Shown one piece after another: positions 1-14,947 of a stretch of 14,947 bases of DNA (position 1 is its first letter; each line of letters opens with the position of its first letter). The DNA comes from Myxococcota bacterium (lineage in GTDB: Bacteria > Myxococcota > JACRCW01), in assembly GCA_040752415.1 (NCBI GenBank), contig JBFMGU010000260.1:1-14947 (forward strand), written 5' to 3'. Under the pieces are notes generated by a model. It saw only the letters and a list, made by a program, of their open reading frames with translations. It ran no database searches and was not told the DNA's origin. The position numbers and the translations under genes were made by a program.

Positions 1-521
1 CCGCCCAGGTGGTGGCCTACCTCCGCCAGATCGGGGACGCGCTTCAGTACGCCCACGACAACCAGATCGTGCACCGCGACCTCAAGCCCGAGAACCTGAT
101 GGTGACCCGCGAGGGGCTGGTCAAGGTGATGGACTTCGGCCTGGCCCGGGGCCACACGAGCTCGACCGTGACCGCCACCGGGGCCGTGTTCGGAACCCCC
201 TCCTACATCCCGCCCGAGCAGGTGCTGGGCCAGAAGCAGTTGGACGCCCGCAGCGACCAGTACTCGCTGGGGGTGCTCCTGTTCGAGATGTTGACGGGAC
301 GTCGGCCCTTCGACGATCAGGACCCGGTGGCCCTGATCTTCAAGCACGTCTCCGAGTCGCCGCCGAAGGCGTCCTCGGTGCGGGAGGGCCTGCCGGCGTC
401 GGTGGACATGGTGCTCGACCGGATGCTCAGCAAGGAGCCGGCGGAGCGATATCCCAGCGTGAGAGAGGCCTGCCACGCCCTGGAGCAGGCCCTGACCGGA
501 CCCGGGAGGGAAGCCCCATGA
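1..521 (+). CDS. Hanks-type Ser/Thr protein kinase, C-terminal part (5' truncated by window edge; frame open from nt 3)
   Basis: Motifs HRDLKPEN (catalytic loop), DFG, GTPSYIPPE (APE variant), DQYSLG and the subdomain XI Arg (PAERY). The kinase domain ends the protein, with no C-terminal TM or PASTA. Stop TGA 519-521 overlaps the next ATG. Confidence 0.95.
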   Translation, partial: AQVVAYLRQIGDALQYAHDNQIVHRDLKPENLMVTREGLVKVMDFGLARGHTSSTVTATGAVFGTPSYIPPEQVLGQKQLDARSDQYSLGVLLFEMLTGRRPFDDQDPVALIFKHVSESPPKASSVREGLPASVDMVLDRMLSKEPAERYPSVREACHALEQALTGPGREAP

Positions 522-2197
522 GGAAGACACGCAGGGGAGCCGGAATCGCCACCGTCCTGGTGGTGTCGGCCCTGGTCCTGACCCTGGGGTTCACCCTGGC
601 GGCATCCAGCTTCATGCACCTGAACGTCAGCACCCAGGTGGTGAACGCCCAGCACGCCCGCGAGCTGGCCGAAAGCGTGGTGGCGGCGGGCATCCAGAAC
701 GTGGTGGAGTCCAGCGGGGCCTACGGTCGGGACGACAACCCCAGCTTCTCCCTGCCTGTCGAGGTGAGCCTGCAAGGGCTGCCGCCGGGGTCCACCGGAC
801 GGCTGGTATTCGACCCGGCCGAAGCTCGCCGGATGGGCATCCCCTACTCCACCAACCGGTTCGAGCGGACCGGAAGGCCGGGCTGGGGCGGCCGGATCGT
901 GCCGGAGGACTGCATCCACCTGGTGGGCACGGGTTCCTGCAACGGGGTGGTGCGCTCGGTGGAGGTGGTACTGCAGGTGCCGCGCTACCCTTACGCGCTG
1001 GCTGCCAACGGGCCCATCCGCTCTTCGGGGAGGATCCTGGTGGGAACCGTCACCCTGACGCAGGCCAGCACCCCCGGGGAAGGCATCGTGGGCGTCGACC
1101 CGGACGAGCTGCTGCCCGGGCACCTGGCCTCCAATGCCACCGACAACGACTCGGTGCGGCTGGCGTTGGACAGCCTGATCACGGGCAACCTGCGCAGCCG
1201 GGGCGGCGTGGTGCTCGACCCGACCGTGCAGGTCCGGGGGCAGGTGCGGGCCAACGGGGACTCCTCTCCGGTGCCCAGGGTCACCATCCCGTCGCTCGAC
1301 CCGGGCCCCCGGGCGCTGCCGCTGCCCCCCGTGGTGGAGCCCGACCCGGAGGCTCCCATCGTGGGCGAGCGCCGGGCCGTGGGCCCGGTGACGGTCAACG
1401 GGGACCTCCTCATGGCCCAGGCGGTGATCTACATCGACGGGGACCTGACCGTCCAAGGAGGGTTGATCGGGCAGGGTCTGGTGGCCTGCACCGGGCGCAT
1501 CCGCATCGACGGAGGCACCACGCTGGACGGCGGCAACCAGGCCGCGCTGCTGGCCGGGGAGGGGGTGGAGCTGATCGGCCGGGGAGCCGCCAGCTCTTCC
1601 TTCCAGGGCATCGTCTACAGCGAGGGGGAGCTTCTGGCCGACCAGATCAGCGTGTTGGGCGCGGCCGTGGTCAACGGGGACGGCACGGAAGGGGTCACCC
1701 TGCGGGACGCCGCCGCCGGGCACGTCCCCGAGTACACCCGCCTGAACATGAGCCTGCCGAATGCATACGCCAGGGCCATCCCCGACTCCTCGAACGCTAT
1801 GGTGACGATGTTCGCGGGGCCGCGGCGGCGCGGAGAGCCCTTCCAACCCACCACGTTCAAGATCGTCCCGTCCCAGCTCTACGTCAATGCCGTGCTGAAG
1901 AAGCCGGGCGACCCGCCCGGAACCGACTACAGCCGCACCTTCAGCAACTGGGCCCAGGCCGAGCCGTTTGCCCGGGACATCGTGGTCTGGTACCAGGGCT
2001 ACTACAACGGCCTGGGCCCGGGCGGCGGTCAGATGGTCAGAATCCTGCAAGGCTTCCTGGACGAATTCCCCACCCCGAGCGACACCTGGGGGGACGCCAA
2101 CCTGCCCACGGTGGCCTCCAACGACTTCACCTTCGACATCAACGAGTTCCTGAGCTTCGGCGACCGCCTCCGGGTGCGCTTCTGGCGCGAGTTCTGA
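518..2197 (+). CDS. PilX/GspK-like minor pilin-type protein with central beta-solenoid region (559 aa)
   Basis: N-terminus KTRRG|AGIATVLVVSALVLTLGFTLA resembles a class III (prepilin) signal lacking E5, as in PilX/GspK. It is followed by an ARELAES..AAGI helix, a central VNGDL/IYIDGDLTVQG/FQGIVYSEG beta-solenoid-like stretch and a C-terminal VRFWREF. GGAGG at 505-509; ATGA overlap with the kinase stop. Confidence 0.7.
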   Translation: MRKTRRGAGIATVLVVSALVLTLGFTLAASSFMHLNVSTQVVNAQHARELAESVVAAGIQNVVESSGAYGRDDNPSFSLPVEVSLQGLPPGSTGRLVFDPAEARRMGIPYSTNRFERTGRPGWGGRIVPEDCIHLVGTGSCNGVVRSVEVVLQVPRYPYALAANGPIRSSGRILVGTVTLTQASTPGEGIVGVDPDELLPGHLASNATDNDSVRLALDSLITGNLRSRGGVVLDPTVQVRGQVRANGDSSPVPRVTIPSLDPGPRALPLPPVVEPDPEAPIVGERRAVGPVTVNGDLLMAQAVIYIDGDLTVQGGLIGQGLVACTGRIRIDGGTTLDGGNQAALLAGEGVELIGRGAASSSFQGIVYSEGELLADQISVLGAAVVNGDGTEGVTLRDAAAGHVPEYTRLNMSLPNAYARAIPDSSNAMVTMFAGPRRRGEPFQPTTFKIVPSQLYVNAVLKKPGDPPGTDYSRTFSNWAQAEPFARDIVVWYQGYYNGLGPGGGQMVRILQGFLDEFPTPSDTWGDANLPTVASNDFTFDINEFLSFGDRLRVRFWREF

Positions 2198-2345: not shown

Positions 2346-3878
2346 TCAAAAGCGGGTGGAGAACTGGCCGTAGATCACGGGGGACTGGCCGGTGGAGTTG
2401 CGTCCCGGCGCGATGGGGAAGCCGAAGTCGAGGCGTCCCGAGAAGCGTTCTCCCAGGCCCAGGCGCAGGCCCACTCCGGCGCCGGTGAAGTCGCGCCCGA
2501 GGGGTTCTCCCGGCTGGGGGTTCTCCAGGCTGGCCCCGCCGTGGTCCAAAAAGGCAGCCAGTTGCAGGCGGGCAGCTTCGTCGTCCAACACCGAGCGGCG
2601 GTACTCCAGGCTGAGGGTGTAGCCCCGGTCTCCCAGGAACTCCGATTGGACGTAGCCGCGCACCGAGTCGGGACCGCCCAGGGCGAACTGCTCCCCCACC
2701 GTGAGCGGCTGGCCGGTGAGCTGGCCGCTGGCCCGCAGCAGCAGGAAGTTCCCCTGGCCGAGCTGGTGGACGTGGCTGGCGTCCAGGTTGAGCCTTCCGA
2801 ACGAGTTGCCGGACCCGGCCCGGCTGGCCACCGGGTTGCTGTTGGGCGAGCCGCCCAGGACGGTTCCCAGACCCTGGGTGTAGACGGCCGACAACCCGGT
2901 GTTGCCGTCCTCCGTCAGCCAGCGTGCCACGTAGCCCACGTTCAGCGACCGGATGCGGTCCTGGCTCAGAGTCAGGTTGCCCAGGATGGAGTTCTTCACG
3001 TCCTTGAGCTGGAACCCGCAGGTGAGGTCGGCCCGGTGGGAAAGCCTGCGCTCCAGGGGGTAGGCGTATTGAATCCCGTAGATGTCGGCCTCGCCCCGGA
3101 TGTCCAGCACGGCCAGCTCCTCGCCCACCAGCGTGTCCGCGCTGGCGTAGAAGAAGTTGAGCCGGTCGCCCGCCTGACTCACGGGGAAGCCGTAGAGCGC
3201 CTGCAGGAACGGCTGCACCTGGCGGGTGGGAAAGGGAAAGACGGAGCGGACGGCCAGGGTGTCCCCCTCGAGGATGGGGTTGCCCCAGGCCACGCTGAGG
3301 CCGGCCCGGTGCTCCCCCACGAAGCGGTTGCCGAAGTTGTTGTACTCGACGCCCACGTGGATCGGGTCCGAATCGTCCACCCGCAGGGTGACGTCGGTGG
3401 TGCCCGGAGCTTTGCCGGGAGATAGCACCGAGCGCACCTTGAGGTCCTCGAAGTCGTTCAGAATCAAGAGGGCCCGCTCCAGGTCGCCCGAGTGCAGCAC
3501 CCCGCGCTGGGTGGCGGGCGCGAAATACCAGCGCACGAAGTCGGCCGAGTAGGCCTGGTTGCCCTCCACCCGAACCTCGCCCACCCGTCCCTCGAGGACC
3601 TGGATGCGCACGCGGCCGTCCCGAATCTCCTGGGCGGGCACCAGGGCGCTGGCCAGGAAGTAGCCCTGGTCCCGATACAACTGCTCCACCCTGCGGGCGG
3701 CCTCGCGCAGCTCCTCCAGGCTGGCCTCCTTGCCCTCGAACGGGGCCAGCACCGCTCGGAGCTGGGACTCGGGCAGGACCGAGTTGCCCTCCACCACGAT
3801 CTCGCGCACGGTGAGCCCCTGGGCCAGGGCACAGACCGTCAGGGAGAGCCACAGCGCCAGCAGTTGAATCCGCTTCAC
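2346..3878 (-). CDS. TpsB (ShlB/FhaC/HecB family) two-partner secretion outer-membrane transporter (510 aa)
   Basis: Sec signal (MKRIQLLALWLSLTVCALA), two POTRA-like segments (VREIVVEGNSVL...YRDQGYFLA; VGEVRVEGN), YNNFGNRFVG barrel start, loop-6 GGPDSVRGY (nt 2652-2663 = VRGY), FLDHG motif and C-terminal Phe. GTG start. Confidence 0.93.
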   Translation of the reverse strand: MKRIQLLALWLSLTVCALAQGLTVREIVVEGNSVLPESQLRAVLAPFEGKEASLEELREAARRVEQLYRDQGYFLASALVPAQEIRDGRVRIQVLEGRVGEVRVEGNQAYSADFVRWYFAPATQRGVLHSGDLERALLILNDFEDLKVRSVLSPGKAPGTTDVTLRVDDSDPIHVGVEYNNFGNRFVGEHRAGLSVAWGNPILEGDTLAVRSVFPFPTRQVQPFLQALYGFPVSQAGDRLNFFYASADTLVGEELAVLDIRGEADIYGIQYAYPLERRLSHRADLTCGFQLKDVKNSILGNLTLSQDRIRSLNVGYVARWLTEDGNTGLSAVYTQGLGTVLGGSPNSNPVASRAGSGNSFGRLNLDASHVHQLGQGNFLLLRASGQLTGQPLTVGEQFALGGPDSVRGYVQSEFLGDRGYTLSLEYRRSVLDDEAARLQLAAFLDHGGASLENPQPGEPLGRDFTGAGVGLRLGLGERFSGRLDFGFPIAPGRNSTGQSPVIYGQFSTRF

Positions 3879-3992: not shown

Positions 3993-6900
3993 GTGGAAGT
4001 GGTGTTGCGAGCGAGCATCCTGCGCGCCGTCGCGTTGTTGGCGCTGCTATGCCCCTCTTTGTCCTCGGCCAACCCCACCGATCCCACCGTGGTCAGCGGC
4101 AGCGCCGTCGTTAACCAGACCAACCCCGCGGTCACCACCGTCACCCAGTACACCGACAGGGTCATCCTCAACTGGAACGGGTTCTCCATCGGGGTGGGCG
4201 AACTGACCCGCTTCATCCAGCCGAGCGACCTGGCCATCGCGCTGAACCGGGTCACCGGGGTCGATCCGTCCGTCATCCTGGGCTCGCTGCAGGCCAACGG
4301 CCGCATCTTCCTGGTCAATCCGAACGGTATCCTGTTCGGTCCCGGGTCCCAGGTGGACGTGGCCGGGCTGCTGGCCACCACGCTGAACCTCTCCGACGAG
4401 GACTTCCTCAACGGGAACTACCGGTTCTACCAGGATCCAAGCAAGGCCCTGTCCTACGTGGTCAACCAGGGTACCCTCACGGCCGCCGACGGCGGCAGCG
4501 TGATCCTTCTGGCCCCGCTGGTGAACAACGAGGGCGTCATCGTGGCCAACCTGGGCCAGGTCACCCTGGCCGGGGGCACCCGGGCGGTGGTCAACTTCGA
4601 CGGGGCGGGCCTGGTCAACCTGGCCCTGGGCGACTCCGACGCGGTACGCGGCTCGGTGCTGGCCGACCCCCAGGCGGTCAGCTCGCTCACCCAACTGGTG
4701 GTCAACCACCCCTCCGTGGTCGAGGCGGGCGCCGTGGTGCACCTGCCGGACGGCCGCATCCTGCTGCAGGGGGCCGAGGGCCTGGTCATCCAGGGCGGCG
4801 TCATCCGGGCGGACGGAGGCGTCCGGCCGGACCTGGGCGCCGGACCGGGCGGGTTGGTGGAGCAGAGCCTGGCCAACACGTCCGTGCGCCCGGGCGATCT
4901 GTCCTCCATCCCGCTGGCCACGGTCAACCACGGCTCGGATTCCGCCGGCAACGTCCTGTTGCACTCCACGGCCGGCACGGTCCTGGCCGACGGCAGCCTG
5001 ACTTCGGCCAGCGCCCCGTCCGCCCACGGCGGGGAAGTGATGGCCCTGTCGCAGGGGCTCACCGTGCTGGCGCCCGGCAGCCGCATCGAGGCGGCCGGAG
5101 GGGAAGGCGGGTTCATCGAGGTCAGCGGTCTCCAGAGCGTGGTGGTGCAGGGCTCGGTGGACACCGCGGGACCCCTGGGAACCTTCCTGATCGACCCCAC
5201 GGCGCTGACCGTGATCAACGGAGCCGGCCCGGGCACCCAGGACGCCCAGTTGCCCGACATCCTGTTCGGCGACCCCAACGTGGGGGCCAACACGGTCAGC
5301 GAAGTGGCCCTGGAGACCCAGGCCAGCGCCACCAATCTCATCCTGAGGGCCACCGGCACGGTGACCTTCAACAACCTGGCCGACGGCACCCTGGACCTCA
5401 CCAACGGCGGTACGCGGACGGACAAGTCGCTCACCGTGGAGACCCAGACCGGAAACATCACCTTCCTGGACCCGACCGACACGGTTCTGACCGGCGGCAC
5501 CGGGACCCTCACCTTCCGCTCGGCCATCAACGCCGGGAATTCGGGGGGCACGCTGGTGCTGGGCAACCTGACCACCCAGAACGGGGCGGTCACGCTGCAG
5601 TCGGACGGGAACCTGACCATGCGGCAGGTGAACTACGGCACCTCCACCCTGAGCGCCACCTCGGGGTTCGCCGGCATCCTGGACGGCAACGGGGCCACCG
5701 CCAACCTGGTGACGGCCGGGGCCGGCAACAGCGCCACCCTGACCGCGGCCGCGGGGATCGGGTCGGCCAACGCGCTGGAGACCTCCTCCACCGGGACCAC
5801 CGTGGTCAACTCGGCCACCGTGAGCGGGACGGGCGCGATCGGGCTGAGCGGCGTGGCCGGAAACCTGACCGTCAATACCGGGACCACCAACAACGGCGCC
5901 ATCACCCTGGGCGCCACCGGGGCGGACCTTACGGTGGGCACGCTAACGGCCGGCGGAGCCGGACGGAACGTCACCCTGACCACCGCCACCAGCGGGAACG
6001 TGAGCGTCGGCACCGTCACCGCCGCCGGCGACACCATCACGGTGAACGCAGCGGGCTCCCTGCTGGAGAACGGTGCGGACGCGGGCGCAGACCTGAACGC
6101 CAACATCCTGAACCTCACCGCAGGAAGCGGGATCGGGGCCGCCGGCGCCGCCCTGGAGGTGAACGGCACCACGCTGTCCACCGCCAACGTGACCGGAGCC
6201 GGGGTGATCAACCTGTCCGACACGGGGGGTGGCCTGACGGTGACCAGCGCCACCACGGCCAACGGGGCCATCACGCTCAACGCGGTCAGCGGCAACCTGA
6301 CCCTGGCCACCGTGACGGCGGGCGGCGCCGCCGACGTCAACCTGTCCACCACCACCAGCGGGAACGTCAACGCCGGCAACGTCACGGCCGCCGGGGACAC
6401 CATCACGGTCAACGCGGCGGGCTCCCTGCTGGAGAACGGCTCCGACCCGGGCCCGGACCTCACGGCCGCCAGCCTGAACCTGACCGCCGGGTCGGGGATC
6501 GGAACGGGGGCCAACGCCCTGGAGGTGAACGCCACCACGCTCAGCAACGCCAGCGTCACCGGAACCGGGCTCATCAACCTGAGGGACACCGCGGGCGGCC
6601 TGACGGTCACCAGCGCCACCACCGCCGACGGGGCCATCACCCTCAACGCGGTGGCCGGGACCCTGACGCTGAGCACCGTGACGGCCGGGGGCGCCGGGCG
6701 CAACATCTCGCTGTCCACCACCACCAGCGGCAACGTGAGCGCGGGCAACGTCACGGCCGCCGGCGACACCCTCACGGTCAACGCCGTCGGCTCCCTGCTG
6801 GAGAACGGGGGCGACGCGGGCGCGGACCTGACCGCAACCACGCTCAGTCTGACCGCCGGCGGCGGGATCGGAACCGGCGGGAACGCCCTGGAGGTGAACG

Positions 6901-9900
6901 GCACCACGCTGTCCACCGCCAATGTGACCGGGGCCGGGCTCATCAACCTGTCCGACACGGCCGGCGGTCTGGCCGTGACCAGCGCCACCACCAACAACGG
7001 GGCCATCACGCTCAACGCCGTGAGCGGCAACCTGACCCTGGCCACCGTGACGGCGGGGGGCGCCGCCAACGTCAACCTGTCCACCACCACCAGCGGCAAC
7101 GTGAGCGCGGGGAACGTCACGGCCGCCGGCGACACCATCACGGTCAACGCCGCCGGGTCCCTGCTGGAGAACGGGGCCGACGCGGGCGCGGACCTCACGG
7201 CCGCCACCCTGAGCCTGACGGCCGGGTCGGGGATCGGAACAGGGGCCAACGCCCTGGAGGTGAACGGCACCACGCTTTCTACCGCCAACGTCACCGCGGC
7301 CGGACTCATCAACCTGAGGGACACCGCGGGCGGTCTGACGGTCACCAGCGCCACCACCGCCAACGGGGCCATCACACTCAACGCCGTGAGCGGCAACCTG
7401 ACCCTGGCCACCGTGACTGCGGGCGGCGTCGCCAACGTCAACCTGTCCACCACCACCAGCGGCAACGTCAGCGCGGGAAACGTCACGGCCGCCGGGGACA
7501 GCATCACGGTCACCGCCGCGGGCTCCCTGCTGGAGAACGGGGCCGACCCGGGCGCGGACCTGACGGCCACCACCCTCAGCCTCACGGCCGGGAGCGGGAT
7601 CGGCACCGCCGCGGCTGCCCTGGAGGTGAACGGCACCACGCTGTCCGCCAACGTGACCGGAGCCGGGGTCCTCAACCTGTCCGACACCGCGGGCGGCCTG
7701 ACCGTGAGCGGCGCCAGCACCGCCAACGGGGCCATCACCCTGAACGCGGTGGGGGGCGACCTGACCCTGGCCACGGTCACGGCCGGCGGCACCGCCAACG
7801 TCAACCTGTCCACCACCACCAGCGGCAACGTCCTGGCCGGCAACGTCACGGCGGCCGGGGACACCATCACGGTCAACGCGGCCGGGTCCCTGCTGGAGAA
7901 CGGTGCGGACGCGGGGGCGGACCTGACCGCCACCACCCTGAGCCTGACCGCCGGAAGCGGGATCGGAGCCCCCGGGGCCGCCCTGGAGGTCAATGGCACC
8001 ACGCTGTCCACCGCCAACGTGACCGGCGCCGGGGTCATCAACCTCTCCGACACGGCGGGCGGTCTGTCGGTCACCAGCGCCACCACCGCCAACGGGGCCA
8101 TCACCCTCAACGCGGTGAGCGGCAACCTGACCCTGGCCACGGTCACGGCGGGCGGGGTGGCCGACGTCAACCTGTCCACCACCACCAGCGGCAACGTCAG
8201 CGCCGGCAACGTCACGGCCGCCGGGGACACCATCACGGTCAACGCCGCCGGCTCCCTGCTGGAGAACGGGGCGGATGTTGGGGCCGACCTGACCGCGGCC
8301 ACCCTCGACCTGACCGCCGGCTCGGGGATCGGAACGGCAGCCAACGCCATGGAGGTGAACGCCACCACGCTGAGCAACGCCAGCGTCACCGGAACCGGGC
8401 TCATCAACCTGTCCGACACGGCCGGGGGCCTGGCGGTGACCAGCGCCACCACCAGCAACGGGGCCATCACCCTGAACGCGGTGGCCGGAAACCTGACCCT
8501 GGGCACGGTGACGGCCGGTGGCGCCGGGCGCAACATCTCGCTGTCCACCACCACCAGCGGGAACGTGAACGTGGGCGACGTGCAGGCGCTGGGGGACACG
8601 ATCACCGTCGTCGCGGCCGGAGCGCTGGAGGAGAATGGCTCGGACCCGGCCGCGGACCTGTCGGCAGCCACGCTCAGCCTGACGGCCGTCAGCGGGATCG
8701 GCAACCTGGGGACGGTGGAGGTGGATGCCACCACCCTGTCCACGGCTAACGTCACGGGGGCCGGCGCCATCAACCTTTCCGACACGTCGGGGGGCCTGAG
8801 CGTGACCACCGCCACCACCCTCAACGGGAACATCACCCTGAACGCCGTGGGCTCGGACCTGACGGTGGCGGTGGTCACCGCGGGGGGTGCCGGCGACGTC
8901 TCCCTGTCCACCACCACCAGCGGAAACGTGAACGTGGGCAACGTGACGGCGCTGGCCGACACCATCACGGTCAACGCTGCAGGCTCTCTGCTCGAGAACG
9001 GGGCCGACGCCACGGCCGACCTCACCGCAGCCACGCTCGACCTCACCGCGGGCACGGGGATCGGGGCGGCCGGAGCCACGCTGGAAGTCAACGCCACGAC
9101 GCTGAGCAACGCCAACGTGACCGGCACCGGGGTCATCAACCTGTCGGACCTGGCGGGCGGCCTGTCGGTGACCAGCGCCACCACGTCGGACGGGGCCATC
9201 ACCCTCAATGCGGTGGCCGGAAATCTGACGCTGGGCACCGTGACCGCCGGCGGAACCGCCAACATCACGCTGTCCACTACCACCAGCGGGAACGTCAACG
9301 CGGGCGACGTCACGGCCGCGGGAGACACCATCACGGTCACGTCCGCGGGAAGCATCCAGGAAAACGGCGCCGACGCGGCGGCCGACCTGACCGCAGCCAC
9401 CCTGAGCCTGACGGCCGCCACCGGCATCGGCACCCTGGGCACGCTGGAGGTGGACGGCACCACGCTGTCCACCGCCAACGTGACCGGAGCGGGAGCCATC
9501 GACCTGTCGGACACGGCCGGGGGCCTCTCGGTCACCAGCGCCACCACCACCAACGGGGCGATCACCCTGAACGCGGTGGCGGGCGACCTGACCCTGGCCA
9601 CCGTGACGGCAGGCGGCGTGGCCAACGTCTCGCTGTCCACCACGACCAGCGGGAACGTCAACGCGGGCGACGTCACGGCCGCCGGGGACACCATCACGGT
9701 CAACGCCGCCGGTTCCCTGCTCGAGAGCGGGGCGGACGCGGCGGCGGACCTCACGGCCGCCACGCTCGACCTCACCGCGGGCACGGGGATCGGGGCCACC
9801 GGCGCCCCGCTGGAGGTGAACGCCACCACGCTCAGCAACGCCAGCGTCACCGGCACCGGAGTCATCAACCTGGCCGACACGGCGGGGGGCCTGTCGGTGA

Positions 9901-12011
9901 CCAGCGCCACCACCGCGGACGGAGCCATCACCCTCAATGCGGTGGCCGGGAACCTGACCCTGGGCACGGTTACGGCCGGCGGGACCGCCGACGTCGCCCT
10001 GTCCACCACCACCAGCGGCAACGTGAGCGTGGACAACGTCGCGGCGGCCGGGGACAGCATCACGGTCAACGCAGCCGGCTCCCTGCTGGAGAACGGGGCC
10101 GACGCGGCCGCCGACCTCACCGCCGGCACGCTCGACCTGACGGCCGCAGCGGGGATCGGAGCGGCCGGCGCGGTCCTGGAGGTGGACGCCACCACGCTCA
10201 GCAACGCCAACGTAACGGGGGTCGGCGTCCTGAACCTGTCCGACACGGCGGGCGGCCTGACGGTCACCAGCGCCACCACGACGGACGGAGCCATCACCCT
10301 CGACGCCGTGGCCGGGGACCTTACCCTGGCGACCGTGACGGCGGGCGGAACAGCCGACGTCACCCTGTCCACCACCACCAGCGGGAACCTGAACGTGGAC
10401 AACGTCACGGCGGCCGGGGACACCATCACGGTGAATTCCGCCGGCGCCATCGAGGAGAGCGGCGCCGACGCCGCCGCCGACCTGACCGCCGCCAACGTGA
10501 GCCTGACGGCGGCTGCTGGCATCGGCAACCTGGGCTCCCTGGAGGTGGACGCGGATGACGGCGGCCTCGCGCTGTCGGTGACCGGGGCCGGCAACGTGGA
10601 TGTGACGGAGACCGCGGGGCCCCTCACGCTGGGGAACTTTGCCAGCGTGGACGGGTCGATCTCGCTGACAGCCACCGGTGGCGACCTGACCGTGGCCGAC
10701 CTTACGGCCAACGGGGCCGGCCGGACGGTCACCCTGACCACCCTCGGCGCCGGGGACGTCAACGTGGGGAACGTGACCGCTTCCGGGATCACGGTCACCT
10801 CGGTGGGTGCGATCGAGGAGAACGGAAGCGACGCCGCCGCCGATCTCACCGCGGGCACGCTGAACCTCTCGGCCGTGTCGGGCATCGGTGCGGCCGACAC
10901 GCTGGAGGTAGACGCCACCACCCTGACCGGCGCGGAGGTGACCGGGCCGGGCCCCATCGACCTGAGCGACACGGCCGGGGGACTCGCGGTGACCAGCGCC
11001 ACCACCGCCGACGGGAACGTAACGCTCAACGCCGTGTCGGGCGACCTTACCCTGACCGCCGTGACGGCGGGCGGCACAGGGGACCTCGTCGCCTCGACCA
11101 CCGGAGGTGGAAACCTGTTCGTGGGCTCTCTGACCGCCGCCGGCGACTCCATCCTCTTGAACAGCGCCAGCGCGGTCCTGGACCAGAACGGGAACGGGGT
11201 CAACCTGACGGCCGACTCGGCCTCGCTGCAGGCGACCGGGACGCTCGGAACCGCGGTCGACGCCCTGGACACCGACGTCACCACGATGTCCGCCGCCGGC
11301 ACCAACCTGTTCGTCAGCGAGGCGAACGGGCTCACCCCGGCCCTGGTAGGAGGACTGACGGGGCTGGTCGCCGCCGGGGACGCCTCGGTAACCGTCCTGG
11401 CGGGCGACCTGGACCTGGGCCACGCCAGCCTGGGTGCCGCGCCCGCGCTCCAGGCGGGGGGTGGCCTCACCGTGAACGCGGTCCTGGGGAACGTGCTGGG
11501 CGACACGGACGAAACCGCACCTGACCTCGTCGCCGGGAGCGCGTGGCTGACGGCCGGGGGCGTGCTGGGCACCTCCGCGGTGCCCCTGGACCTGGCCGTG
11601 GTGGGGAGCCTGTCGGTAGCCGCGTCCGGGGTGCAGGGGGGGATCTCCGCCAACCTGCAGGGGACCGCAGGTTCCGTGGCGGTCCAGAATGCCCCCCCGG
11701 GTCAAGTCCTGTTCAACGGAGCGGTGATCTACCCGCCCGCTCCGCCGGTGCCCCCGGCGCCGCCGGTCCCTCCCGCTCCGCCCACCCCACCGGCACCGCC
11801 GGCTCCCGCGCCGGTCACCCCCAGCGCCACCCCCACCGAGAGCGCCGAGACCGCCCCGGCCGCGACCCCCGTGGACAGCGCCCTGGTGGAGGAGCTGGGT
11901 CTGGGCAACACCACCAACTACTTCCCCGCCGCGCCGACCGTGACGGCCGGCTCCGACTCCCTGCTCAAGGACGCTCGCTTCCTGATGCAGAAGCGCCACC
12001 GGAAAGACTGA
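3993..12011 (+). CDS. TpsA filamentous haemagglutinin-family exoprotein/adhesin (2672 aa)
   Basis: Sec signal ending SLSSA|NP (mature start about nt 4071). TPS secretion domain: ILNWNGFSIG, LNRVTG, GSLQANGRIFLVNPNGILFG (NPNG at 4317-4328). Long T/A/G/N-rich repeat stalk, Pro-rich linker, short basic tail. Adjacent to tpsB. The start could be one of the in-frame GTG/TTG codons at 3993-4005. Confidence 0.93.
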   Translation: MEVVLRASILRAVALLALLCPSLSSANPTDPTVVSGSAVVNQTNPAVTTVTQYTDRVILNWNGFSIGVGELTRFIQPSDLAIALNRVTGVDPSVILGSLQANGRIFLVNPNGILFGPGSQVDVAGLLATTLNLSDEDFLNGNYRFYQDPSKALSYVVNQGTLTAADGGSVILLAPLVNNEGVIVANLGQVTLAGGTRAVVNFDGAGLVNLALGDSDAVRGSVLADPQAVSSLTQLVVNHPSVVEAGAVVHLPDGRILLQGAEGLVIQGGVIRADGGVRPDLGAGPGGLVEQSLANTSVRPGDLSSIPLATVNHGSDSAGNVLLHSTAGTVLADGSLTSASAPSAHGGEVMALSQGLTVLAPGSRIEAAGGEGGFIEVSGLQSVVVQGSVDTAGPLGTFLIDPTALTVINGAGPGTQDAQLPDILFGDPNVGANTVSEVALETQASATNLILRATGTVTFNNLADGTLDLTNGGTRTDKSLTVETQTGNITFLDPTDTVLTGGTGTLTFRSAINAGNSGGTLVLGNLTTQNGAVTLQSDGNLTMRQVNYGTSTLSATSGFAGILDGNGATANLVTAGAGNSATLTAAAGIGSANALETSSTGTTVVNSATVSGTGAIGLSGVAGNLTVNTGTTNNGAITLGATGADLTVGTLTAGGAGRNVTLTTATSGNVSVGTVTAAGDTITVNAAGSLLENGADAGADLNANILNLTAGSGIGAAGAALEVNGTTLSTANVTGAGVINLSDTGGGLTVTSATTANGAITLNAVSGNLTLATVTAGGAADVNLSTTTSGNVNAGNVTAAGDTITVNAAGSLLENGSDPGPDLTAASLNLTAGSGIGTGANALEVNATTLSNASVTGTGLINLRDTAGGLTVTSATTADGAITLNAVAGTLTLSTVTAGGAGRNISLSTTTSGNVSAGNVTAAGDTLTVNAVGSLLENGGDAGADLTATTLSLTAGGGIGTGGNALEVNGTTLSTANVTGAGLINLSDTAGGLAVTSATTNNGAITLNAVSGNLTLATVTAGGAANVNLSTTTSGNVSAGNVTAAGDTITVNAAGSLLENGADAGADLTAATLSLTAGSGIGTGANALEVNGTTLSTANVTAAGLINLRDTAGGLTVTSATTANGAITLNAVSGNLTLATVTAGGVANVNLSTTTSGNVSAGNVTAAGDSITVTAAGSLLENGADPGADLTATTLSLTAGSGIGTAAAALEVNGTTLSANVTGAGVLNLSDTAGGLTVSGASTANGAITLNAVGGDLTLATVTAGGTANVNLSTTTSGNVLAGNVTAAGDTITVNAAGSLLENGADAGADLTATTLSLTAGSGIGAPGAALEVNGTTLSTANVTGAGVINLSDTAGGLSVTSATTANGAITLNAVSGNLTLATVTAGGVADVNLSTTTSGNVSAGNVTAAGDTITVNAAGSLLENGADVGADLTAATLDLTAGSGIGTAANAMEVNATTLSNASVTGTGLINLSDTAGGLAVTSATTSNGAITLNAVAGNLTLGTVTAGGAGRNISLSTTTSGNVNVGDVQALGDTITVVAAGALEENGSDPAADLSAATLSLTAVSGIGNLGTVEVDATTLSTANVTGAGAINLSDTSGGLSVTTATTLNGNITLNAVGSDLTVAVVTAGGAGDVSLSTTTSGNVNVGNVTALADTITVNAAGSLLENGADATADLTAATLDLTAGTGIGAAGATLEVNATTLSNANVTGTGVINLSDLAGGLSVTSATTSDGAITLNAVAGNLTLGTVTAGGTANITLSTTTSGNVNAGDVTAAGDTITVTSAGSIQENGADAAADLTAATLSLTAATGIGTLGTLEVDGTTLSTANVTGAGAIDLSDTAGGLSVTSATTTNGAITLNAVAGDLTLATVTAGGVANVSLSTTTSGNVNAGDVTAAGDTITVNAAGSLLESGADAAADLTAATLDLTAGTGIGATGAPLEVNATTLSNASVTGTGVINLADTAGGLSVTSATTADGAITLNAVAGNLTLGTVTAGGTADVALSTTTSGNVSVDNVAAAGDSITVNAAGSLLENGADAAADLTAGTLDLTAAAGIGAAGAVLEVDATTLSNANVTGVGVLNLSDTAGGLTVTSATTTDGAITLDAVAGDLTLATVTAGGTADVTLSTTTSGNLNVDNVTAAGDTITVNSAGAIEESGADAAADLTAANVSLTAAAGIGNLGSLEVDADDGGLALSVTGAGNVDVTETAGPLTLGNFASVDGSISLTATGGDLTVADLTANGAGRTVTLTTLGAGDVNVGNVTASGITVTSVGAIEENGSDAAADLTAGTLNLSAVSGIGAADTLEVDATTLTGAEVTGPGPIDLSDTAGGLAVTSATTADGNVTLNAVSGDLTLTAVTAGGTGDLVASTTGGGNLFVGSLTAAGDSILLNSASAVLDQNGNGVNLTADSASLQATGTLGTAVDALDTDVTTMSAAGTNLFVSEANGLTPALVGGLTGLVAAGDASVTVLAGDLDLGHASLGAAPALQAGGGLTVNAVLGNVLGDTDETAPDLVAGSAWLTAGGVLGTSAVPLDLAVVGSLSVAASGVQGGISANLQGTAGSVAVQNAPPGQVLFNGAVIYPPAPPVPPAPPVPPAPPTPPAPPAPAPVTPSATPTESAETAPAATPVDSALVEELGLGNTTNYFPAAPTVTAGSDSLLKDARFLMQKRHRKD
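5640..11600 (+). repeat. Intragenic tandem repeat array in tpsA: about 15 conserved units of 363-369 nt (121-123 aa) plus degenerate flanking units
   Basis: The anchor codon of the LLENG-type motif recurs at 6066, 6432, 6801, 7167, 7533, 7896, 8262, 8631, 8994, 9360, 9723, 10089, 10455, 10818 and 11184. Degenerate copies lie near 5685 and 11500. Confidence 0.92.
11733..11870 (+). repeat. Proline-rich linker (PPAPPV/T/A x4, 18-nt unit, then P/T/A-rich) near the TpsA C-terminus
   Basis: Translation PPAPPVPPAPPVPPAPPTPPAPPAPAPVTPSATPTESAETAPAATP; synonymous codons differ between units. Confidence 0.9.
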
Positions 12012-12679
12012 TGCGGACCTGGCTGGCGGCCCTCTTGCTGCTGCTCACCCTGCCGGCGCGGGCCCAGACCCCGGAGGAGGCGGACGCCGCCAGCGCGGCC
12101 CTGTCAGCTCAGTTGTCCGCGGGGCTGAGGGTGACCTGGACGGGGCAGGGGCTCTCCTGCGGGCCGATCCTCCTCACGGGTCTCTCCAACGGCAGCGGCG
12201 CCCCGCTGACGGTGCGCCTGGTGCCGGGAATGGTCCTGACGCCCTCCGACGACGGGCAGCGCATGATGCTGGCGTCGCGGCACGAAGTCGCGCTCCAGGC
12301 CGGCCAGGAGGCCAGCGTGATGCCGGAAGGCTACTGCCTGGACCCCTCCAAAGACCCGCCGCCCAGGGGACAGGCGGTGAACTATTCGCTGGGGTCCGGG
12401 TTCGCGGCCGACCTGACCCTCATCCGCGTGGGCGAGCGACTGGCCGCGGAGGGGCGGTTCGGCCCCGAGTTCCCCCCCGACCAGCGCAAGGTGGTGGTCA
12501 TCCAGCGCGCCATCTGGGCCTCCCGAGGCTACACCCGCCAGGACCTGGCCGTGGAAATCGCCGACGAATTCGCCGCCCGGACCGACCCCAACCGGGCCGG
12601 CTCGGTATCGCCCGAGGCCCTGGCGGACTCGATCTGGCGCGACGTCGAGCTGGTGCTGCGAGAAGCCGGACAACGCTGA
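12011..12679 (+). CDS. Exported 222-aa protein with thioester-domain (TED)-like motifs
   Basis: True start is most likely ATG 12011 (TGATG overlap with the tpsA stop), not 11543 as in the ORF track. Signal peptide MRTWLAALLLLLTLPARA|Q. Motifs GYCLDPSKDPP (C109) and VIQRAIW (Q165). The CDS is well supported; the TED call is tentative. Confidence 0.75.
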   Translation: MRTWLAALLLLLTLPARAQTPEEADAASAALSAQLSAGLRVTWTGQGLSCGPILLTGLSNGSGAPLTVRLVPGMVLTPSDDGQRMMLASRHEVALQAGQEASVMPEGYCLDPSKDPPPRGQAVNYSLGSGFAADLTLIRVGERLAAEGRFGPEFPPDQRKVVVIQRAIWASRGYTRQDLAVEIADEFAARTDPNRAGSVSPEALADSIWRDVELVLREAGQR

Positions 12680-12700
12680 TCGACCCGTCGTCGCGGTGCG

Positions 12701-12741
12701 TTTCAATGATTGTTCAAGGTTCGCCCGGGTAACGTTGCCCC
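12701..12741 (+). promoter_or_regulatory. Putative leaderless promoter of the toxin gene
   Basis: No SD before ATG 12742. TAACGT (TAnnnT) at 12730-12735 lies 6 nt upstream of the ATG. TTCAA direct repeat at 12702 and 12713; imperfect palindrome GGGTAACGTTGCCC at 12727-12740. Confidence 0.4.
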
Positions 12742-14459: not shown

Positions 14460-14947
14460 ATGATCGCCGAGCACGGGCTGTGGTTGGATTCCGCGGGCCT
14501 GGAGGGCCGCAGACTGGAGGAGTCCCACCTGGACTGGCGCGGTCGGGCCCTCTCCCGGGCGCGGTTGTGCCAGGCGGTGCTGCCAGGAGCATCCCTGGAC
14601 GGTGCCCGGCTGGACGGCGCCGACCTTTATGCCGCCTTTCTCCACTCGGCTTCACTGGTGGGCAGCGACCTGCGCGGCGCGGTCCTGGTCCGGTCCGAGT
14701 TGGACGGGGCGGACCTGACCGAGGCCGACCTGTCGGGGGCATCTCTGTCGGGCGCCTGCGTCAGCGGAGCCTGCCTCCGAAGGGCCAACCTGACGGCGGC
14801 AGACCTGAGCGGGGCGGACCTGTCCCGGTCCGACCTCGAGGCGGCCTGCCTGCGACAGGCCCGCCTGGACCGAGCTCTGTTCCAGGATACCCGGCTGGAC
14901 CAGGCCGACCTGACCGGGTGCACCGGGCTCGCGACGGCGCAGGTCTG
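14460..14947 (+). CDS. Pentapeptide-repeat protein, candidate immunity protein (3' truncated by window edge; not in ORF track)
   Basis: Strong SD GGAGGAGGGAG directly after the toxin stop, ATG at 14460, frame open to the window end. Translation MIAEHGLWLDSAGLEGRRL...ASLDG ARLDG ADLYA AFLHS ASLVG SDLRG ... ADLTE ADLSG ASLSG ... ANLTA ADLSG ADLSR gives classic A(D/N)Lxx repeats. Confidence 0.9.
   Translation, partial: MIAEHGLWLDSAGLEGRRLEESHLDWRGRALSRARLCQAVLPGASLDGARLDGADLYAAFLHSASLVGSDLRGAVLVRSELDGADLTEADLSGASLSGACVSGACLRRANLTAADLSGADLSRSDLEAACLRQARLDRALFQDTRLDQADLTGCTGLATAQV

Follow-up and report, generated by a model that had tools for sequence, protein, structure and literature searches.

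Two-partner secretion (TPS) is usually described as a system of two components. Here we describe a small gene whose family most likely constitutes a conserved third component of TPS loci, and whose product is probably a distant homologue of the thioester domains (TEDs) of Gram-positive surface adhesins. The gene lies at positions 12011-12679 (forward strand) of contig JBFMGU010000260.1, from a Myxococcota bacterium (assembly GCA_040752415.1) with a genome of 11 Mb and ~70% GC; the entire 14,947-bp contig was analysed, and is referred to below as the window. The product, P0001 (222 amino acids, aa), is encoded directly downstream of tpsA, the gene for a repeat-rich exoprotein, which is itself divergent from tpsB, the gene for an Omp85-type transporter. 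The proposal in its entirety, i.e. that P0001 is a compact, distant TED relative, that it acts as a third component of TPS and that it contains an internal thioester, is offered as a possibility that falls a little short of probable, whilst its separate parts command differing degrees of confidence, as set out below. The features on which the argument draws are as follows.

2346-3878, reverse strand: tpsB, Omp85-type transporter, divergent from tpsA (ShlB PF03865, E 2.4e-30; POTRA_2, E 2.6e-22)
3993-12011, forward strand: tpsA, 2672-aa repeat-rich exoprotein (N-terminal TPS domain PF05860, E 5.2e-34)
11769-12008, forward strand: C-terminal extension of TpsA, in which a Pro-rich linker and GLGNTTNYF precede the tail LLKDARFLMQKRHRKD (shared-tail alignment A5)
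12008-12012, forward strand: TGATG, in which the tpsA stop codon overlaps the start codon of the TED-like gene (same overlap in locus L005)
12011-12679, forward strand: gene for the TED-like, predicted-exported protein P0001 (translation; GC content at third codon positions, GC3, 0.91; 121 homologous representatives)
12011-12064, forward strand: residues 1-18, read by eye as a Sec signal peptide that would be cleaved after A-R-A
12257-12259, forward strand: codon of Gln83, which lies in the strand motif G-Q-R-M-M and is a candidate thioester partner (Q in 99/121)
12332-12343, forward strand: YCLD motif, residues 108-111, with Cys109 (codon from nt 12335; C in 104/121)
12500-12517, forward strand: IQRAIW helical motif, residues 164-169 (Q165 in 114/121, W169 in 120/121)

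The gene and its product

An earlier note on this DNA, made from its letters, had described the gene as translationally coupled to tpsA through a TGATG overlap, and this is borne out at the nucleotide level: the tpsA stop codon (TGA, 12009-12011) overlaps the start codon (ATG, 12011-12013), and the junction reads ...GACTGATGCGG. The GC3 value of the open reading frame (ORF) resembles those of tpsA (0.94) and tpsB (0.92), whereas that of an antisense ORF of 200 aa (12104-12706) is 0.72, and the forward frame is therefore taken to be the coding one. The N-terminus of P0001, MRTWLAALLLLLTLPARA followed beyond the predicted cleavage site by QT, shows, by eye, a basic residue, a stretch of hydrophobic residues and an A-x-A site, in keeping with the signal peptide that the note had seen and with a predicted Sec type. 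Hydrophobic N-termini are also found in the homologues, with a lipobox-like site in 7 of the 110 members that begin with Met. The remaining motifs named in the note are likewise all present where it had placed them: besides YCLD with Cys109 and IQRAIW, these are GMVLTP (residues 73-78) and DGQRMML (residues 81-87), the latter including Gln83. Its picture of a stand-alone, predicted-exported protein in a diderm also stands, P0001 being a 222-aa protein on its own with a TpsB/Omp85 gene in the same window. The only cysteines are Cys50 and Cys109. That P0001 is a real member of an exported protein family, with export read from its sequence, we regard as all but certain.

Searches of P0001 against PADLOC, and of its sequence against PDB sequences, gave no match. 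The ESM Atlas contains the exact sequence of P0001, with a confident model (predicted template modelling score, pTM, 0.80) whose structural neighbours are Bacteroidota clusters (template modelling score, TM, 0.55-0.58) and clusters of ARPP-1 (PF20208; TM 0.45-0.48).

Association with two-partner secretion loci

Homologous loci were gathered from eight genome contigs, nine metagenome contigs (two of which are the L010 and L012 contigs) and the window, giving 16 distinct loci; two of these (L048 and L050) are too short to judge, and 14 are assessable. Seven of the eight genome-contig loci belong to metagenome-assembled genomes labelled Vulcanimicrobiota, Candidatus Xenobia or 'bacterium', and the eighth carries the label Burkholderiales. 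A TpsB or TpsA-like gene directly adjoins the TED-like gene in 13 of the 14 assessable loci, and synteny with TPS genes, which the earlier note had proposed to check for tpsA, is a recurrent property of the homologues. The adjoining gene is tpsB in eight loci (L007, with a 4-nt overlap, and L008, L009, L010, L043, L045, L046 and L049), where the encoded orthologues are 37-55% identical to the TpsB of the window. In the other five (the window, L005, L006, L011 and L044) a TpsA-like ORF ends just upstream, called by tblastn for L005 and L011 and by eye from repeats and tail for L006 and L044; the TGATG overlap recurs in L005. A POTRA_2 ORF lies 1.5 kb upstream of the TED-like gene in L012, and contig C41 of genome G402 (L064) provides a further case adjacent to tpsA.

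Gene counts per genome bear on what the TED-like gene accompanies. In the genome of the window, TPS-domain, ShlB and TED-like genes each occur exactly once, whilst genome G403, which holds L005 and L007, has 26 TPS matches, three ShlB matches and two TED-like genes, so that a few transporters probably serve many TpsA cargoes there. From its genomic context as a whole, the TED-like gene therefore goes with the secretion machinery and not with each individual cargo. On contig C14 of G403 several TpsA genes stand in tandem. The PF05860 TPS domain itself was found neither in P0001 nor, at E <= 0.001, in any of the 121 family members.

Taken as an accessory of TPS, a role that we hold to be very likely, the TED-like protein invites comparison with accessory TPS genes such as those for the HMW1C/EtpC glycosyltransferases, which are cytoplasmic enzymes. 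The two cases are alike in that an extra gene is conserved beside tpsA/tpsB, presumably for maturation or retention of the exoprotein; P0001 differs in having a predicted signal peptide, no match to an enzyme family, and TED-like motifs.

The wider surroundings are also partly shared between loci. The order ankyrin-repeat gene, HD-domain gene, tpsB, TED-like gene is seen in L008 (5837-12271), L010 (6946-13285) and L009 (866-4622); in L008 and L010 a BolA gene and then a gene for an MrfA-type helicase follow the TED-like gene, and CHASE2-adenylate cyclase genes lie nearby on two of these three contigs.

The homologous family

An exhaustive HMMER search of 1.84 billion representatives, with a cut at E <= 1e-3, returned 121 cluster representatives, 44 of them below 1e-10; the best homologue of P0001 has E 1.5e-36 and 41% identity. 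A word-indexed protein search returned P0001 alone and, with a profile, three proteins. No paralogue was found in the genome of the window, and the genomes of 60 relatives gave a single weak match, which contains stops. About half of the family are stand-alone proteins of 200-300 aa, the rest carrying the domain C-terminally in proteins of 400-900 aa. An NCBIfam search of all 121 members gave coiled-coil-type noise alone, in the long members. Individual fusions include P0106, in which the domain is joined to CarboxypepD_reg and a TonB-receptor Plug, P0019 (TIG domain), P0080 (eCIS_core domain) and P0085 (coiled coils).

The best-conserved columns of the family alignment (A2, n = 121) are W169 (120), Q165 (114), P117 (110) and C109 (104), followed by G73 and N60 (103 each) and Q83 (99). 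The cysteine is preceded by Y or F in 108 of the 121 sequences, and the acidic position of the motif is D, E or N in 114. Because the YCLD, IQRAIW and Gln83 motifs coincide with the most conserved columns, their presence goes beyond chance, and the conservation of Cys109 on which the earlier note had made its reading depend is found throughout most of the family. Cys109 is present in 103 near-full-length domains, 52 of which contain no further cysteine. A Cys50-Cys109 disulfide, which the note had named as a finding that would overturn its reading, is ruled out as a family feature: column 50 is occupied by A, S or T in most homologues rather than by Cys, and there is no second conserved cysteine column, none other rising above 8 of 117.

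More distant relatives came to light when a profile was run against 401 genomes from the phylum to which the window belongs. Partial matches occur in 35 of the 172 genomes of one family (f11; genomes of 9-13 Mb) and correspond to lipoproteins of ~240 aa (L014-L042) with the motifs V.LCL.F.N, PPGL, QNG, YC.N and [IV]Q.AV; these have no match in Pfam. Alignment of their profile with that of the P0001 family gave an hhalign probability of 98.8% (E 1.3e-16) and brought all four motifs into register. In 30 lipoprotein ORFs N60, G73 and Q83 are each present in all 30 and C109 in 29, and the helix Gln is kept. Unlike the P0001 family, these relatives are lipoproteins, are shorter at the C-terminus, often miss the Trp and have extra invariant cysteines.

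Cys109 and Gln83 as a candidate thioester pair

Among the 121 family members Cys109 and Gln83 are both present in 96 and both absent in 14, whilst eight have Cys alone and three Gln alone (Fisher p ~1e-8 to 2e-10 for co-occurrence, a value that ignores relatedness). On a tree of 117 rows, from which columns 83 and 109 had been removed and four fragments dropped, six events of Cys loss can be placed, and in four of them (P0115, P0077, P0084 and a clade of seven) Gln83 is lost on the same branch. Q165 and W169 stay in three of these four joint losses; in the clade of seven G73 has also changed. A fifth event involves three members, one of which has lost Gln83. By mutual information with average product correction (APC) the 83-109 pair ranks 13th of 15,400 pairs, the pairs 109-165 and 83-165 ranking 5,834th and 9,370th.

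The earlier note had put Gln83 forward as a candidate partner of Cys109. Joint loss in four of the six Cys-loss events, the rank by mutual information and the retention of both residues in the lipoprotein branch are consistent with this, and the sequence comparisons suggest that Gln83 is the best substitute for the canonical thioester Gln, which is missing here. An internal Cys109-Gln83 thioester may thus be present, although on these co-variation data we place it slightly on the doubtful side. With its Gln ahead of the Cys, the domain may be circularly permuted, as the note had suggested, or may simply have lost the Gln strand.

Relation to Gram-positive thioester domains

In the motif definitions given in PMC4450167, the TED cysteine sits within the motif [YFL]C-phi-zeta; a second motif, TQxx-phi-W, is helical, forms a hydrogen bond with the Cys backbone, is dispensable for the bond and does not supply the thioester Gln; and the reactive Gln lies on a beta-strand, phi-Q-zeta-phi-phi, at the C-terminal side of the helical subdomain. 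The account of TED motifs in the earlier note agrees with these definitions. Gln165, within IQRAIW, was considered as the thioester partner and rejected, since the reactive residue of TEDs is a Gln other than that of TQxxW (PMC4450167).

The AlphaFold2 (AF2) model of P0001 (34-sequence alignment; predicted local distance difference test score, pLDDT, 94.3; pTM 0.87) shows a beta-sandwich (39-128) and then four helices (132-218), with nothing after them. Cys109 closes strand 106-109, and IQRAIW lies within helix 156-170. As modelled, the domain would thus consist of a beta-sandwich, bearing the Cys of a [YF]C-L-D motif, packed against a helical subdomain that contains the I-Q-R-A-I-W helix. Two of the three TED motifs are present in the correct order, with the correct spacing and secondary structure: YCLD ends a beta-strand and fits the motif [YFL]C-phi-zeta, and V-I-Q-R-A-I-W-A-S is helical, its Thr position being mostly I, V or L, with T in 10 of the 121 members. 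The third motif is without a canonical counterpart.

Three kinds of search point towards TEDs. The Pfam TED profile PF08341, with a gathering score of 22 bits, gives scores of 21.7, 21.2 and 20.3 bits in a group of three members, P0028, P0053 and P0100, over profile positions 2 to 89-99; these three matches start one residue before [YF]C and extend past QxxxW, and two further partial matches (17-18 bits) cover the helix. The A2 family profile, compared with PDB sequences, matches TED1 of Cpa (4c0z_A, E 0.015) and the TED of SfbI (5a0l_A, E 0.29), the 4c0z match beginning three profile positions ahead of the Cys column; the 19 matches otherwise comprise designed proteins and one tRNA ligase (E 1.2), so that, the ligase apart, no natural protein but these two TEDs is matched. 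Finally, when the P0001 model is ranked against 48,161 chains, seven of the top 14 are TED entries, with both subdomains covered, and for a second model, built from an independent alignment of distant relatives, TEDs appear at ranks 4, 6, 17 and 33. Taken singly, each of these sequence and fold lines is weak; they are nonetheless independent of one another and share the same register, and on balance we consider P0001 a probable homologue of TEDs.

Set beside the TEDs of Cpa, SfbI and the TIE adhesins CpTIE and BaTIE, P0001 shares the [YF]C-hydrophobic-acidic motif that closes a beta-strand, the Q-x-x-hydrophobic-W helix, here ~56 residues after the Cys motif, and, as modelled, the packing of a beta subdomain against a helical one. 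It differs in that the candidate Gln83 is upstream of the Cys and not in a C-terminal strand; in being a stand-alone domain of ~180-200 residues with its own predicted signal peptide; and in having neither an LPXTG anchor nor an isopeptide/ester stalk, nor an N-terminal position in a multi-domain wall-anchored protein. The hosts of the family are diderms, its genes stand beside those for TpsA and TpsB, and its thioester is putative, whereas TEDs are presented as Gram-positive in both PMC4450167 (2015) and PMC13685950 (2026). New TED clusters in predicted fibrillar adhesins are described in PMC9210967. P0001 is not filed as a TED, because it has no canonical Gln strand, a sub-cut-off relation to Pfam, no Gram-positive adhesin architecture and a thioester that is putative; we call it a TED-like variant. 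Of the TED identity put forward in the earlier note, the motifs stand, as does a weak but concordant similarity, whilst the comparison by Foldseek, the PF08341 cut-off and the canonical Gln strand speak against it.

The C-terminal tail of TpsA

The tail that ends the C-terminal extension of the window TpsA contains an acidic patch, an Asp and a Phe that are invariant (5/5 in alignment A5), two hydrophobic residues and basic residues. Corresponding extensions are found at L005:9735-9974, L006:679-918, L011:2695-2934 and L044:335-574, with L064 as a sixth case; the window and L005 have a linker rich in Pro, and an LG..T.Y element is present in some of the TpsA-like genes. All six TpsA-like genes that are directly followed by a TED-like gene have the extension. 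It is missing from all six assessable TpsAs of G403 that have no TED-like gene downstream, which end instead in ...PPGxxLFNGxxxP, the element that in the window TpsA precedes the Pro-rich linker. These six are part of a set of 15 other TpsA 3' ends, of which two run off the contig, two have no sensible frame and one is a positive control (L064); beyond the six G403 ends without the extension, one in G401 has a similar acidic/basic tail and three end differently.

The co-occurrence of tail and gene (6/6, versus 0/6 within G403) suggests that the tail may be what the TED-like protein recognises. A more definite role for it as a docking or attachment site is, on present sequence comparisons, unlikely though worth stating. 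FhaB of Bordetella has a prodomain in which a proline-rich region and the extreme C-terminus are held in the periplasm. The window TpsA, which also ends in a Pro-rich linker and a short conserved extreme C-terminal tail, resembles it in layout, and this layout suggests a periplasmically retained C-terminus that would be open to partners. Unlike the situation for FhaB, the tail of the window type co-occurs with a separate TED-like gene.

Proposed mechanism and alternatives

In the mechanism that we envisage, the TED-like protein would enter the periplasm via Sec and fold there, probably forming an internal Cys109-Gln83 thioester that would lie hidden where the sandwich meets the IQRAIW helix, with Gln83 supplied by the upstream strand. 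It would then dock on the C-terminal tail of TpsA and/or on TpsB, acting on machinery or cargo, and the thioester would capture an amine nucleophile covalently, so locking or anchoring the C-terminal end of the filament. Export, thioester formation, the partnership of Gln83, the periplasmic site and the target are each points that we infer. A more specific version, which we think distinctly unlikely, would have a compact, rearranged TED of diderms, with its Gln on an upstream strand, serve as a covalent envelope lock for TPS that recognises an acidic-F-hydrophobic-hydrophobic-x-basic tail and tethers it by an isopeptide bond to itself, TpsB or the envelope.

A number of observations weigh against the proposal. 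As regards the TED relationship, P0001 has no Pfam or NCBIfam match at a threshold as lenient as E <= 1, none of the 121 family members reaches the PF08341 cut-off, and the narrower A1 and A4 profiles, like P0100 and P0053, yield no TED among PDB sequences; nor does PF08341 find any match in the genome of the window. Foldseek finds no TED in the PDB with either model, so that the resemblance to TED structures on which the earlier note had staked its reading was not recovered by that route, and its top 1000, once re-aligned, are generic beta-sandwich matches. The canonical C-terminal Gln strand is absent, as the note had already remarked, the AF2 model ending in helices, the last of them 201-218, with no strand after. 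As regards the thioester, Cys109 is not invariant, being absent from 17 of the 121 members; three lineages keep Gln83 without Cys109; eight members, mostly of one divergent clade in which the alignment may shift, have the Cys without an aligned Gln83; and a phylogeny-aware pair test, with two supported pairs only, has no power. The tail in L064 has Arg and no Lys near its end, which makes a universally conserved tail lysine less likely as the nucleophile. Lastly, the lipoprotein branch does not adjoin TPS genes, and the TPS association therefore holds for the subfamily of the window, not for the superfamily.

These points give shape to three other explanations. The protein could be TED-derived but chemically inert, a periplasmic chaperone, plug or adaptor on the TpsA tail or the POTRA region of TpsB in which Cys109 and Gln83 serve packing or hydrogen bonding. 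We find this rather unlikely, if well worth weighing, as the missing Gln strand fits it, the 17 members without the Cys keep Q165, W169 and the rest of the fold, which points to a scaffold function independent of the Cys, and both synteny and the tail correlation need binding only and no chemistry. It accounts less readily for a lone, highly conserved cysteine in an exported protein, which is unusual (the sole one in half of the domains counted above), for the loss of Cys109 jointly with one particular Gln, or for the retention of the Cys-Gln pair in the most distant branch (Q83 30/30, C109 29/30). That the motifs instead arose by convergence or chance, on a generic beta-sandwich and helical bundle without any relation to TEDs, would be in line with similarity scores that are each sub-significant alone, with the negative Foldseek result and with ESM Atlas neighbours that are unnamed clusters or ARPP-1; we nevertheless rate it very improbable, as three independent kinds of search (PF08341 at the Cys, the profile matches to 4c0z and 5a0l, and the seven TEDs in the top 14, recurring with the second model) converge on the same rare family in the same register.

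The third explanation concerns location: the protein might leave the cell, through TpsB or by another route, and act as a free or filament-attached covalent adhesin, the 'tip' that the earlier note had listed among possible roles. Known TEDs are surface adhesins (PMC4450167), and in eight loci the gene is paired with tpsB with no tpsA beside it, which would make its product a possible cargo. Against this stands the lack of a TPS secretion domain in P0001 and its family. Known TpsB cargoes require that domain, the genomes with TpsB-paired copies encode TpsAs elsewhere (two in G401, eight in G402), and the lipoprotein-like character of some members, together with the lipoproteins of the distant branch, argues for a location in the cell envelope, so that we regard an extracellular adhesin as highly improbable.

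Literature searches turned up no publication that connects TEDs with two-partner secretion or with adhesins of Gram-negative bacteria, and listed no TED from a diderm; the statement that such a link is not in print rests solely on those searches. If the envelope-lock version of the mechanism is correct, P0001 would be the first accessory of any outer-membrane secretion system to act covalently through a thioester, and TED chemistry would for the first time extend beyond Gram-positive adhesins. A TED-related domain of diderms that takes its Gln from another strand would broaden the range of spontaneous protein thioesters, in taxonomy as well as in structure, and its small size (~180 residues) could make it useful as a scaffold on which to build covalent protein tags. 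A third component that is conserved and exported, and is matched by a special TpsA tail, points to an unstudied step in TPS, such as retention, anchoring or release of the filament.

Other genes in the window

Upstream of tpsB, an ORF at 518-2197 (forward strand; open frame 2-2197) encodes 559 aa from its ATG and has no family match, a GspK-like N-terminus (E 0.39) being the sole hint. Downstream of the TED-like gene, P0003 (12742-14448, forward strand, 568 aa) lacks a signal peptide and has no match in Pfam, NCBIfam, PADLOC or PDB sequences; by eye, a stretch at about residues 300-360 is rich in Gly and reminiscent of pre-toxin (PT-TG) linkers, and the C-terminus shows a D..E..K-like pattern. 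The next gene (14460-14945, forward strand) encodes a pentapeptide-repeat protein (PF00805, E 1.5e-31), with which P0003 may form a pair resembling a polymorphic toxin and its immunity protein.

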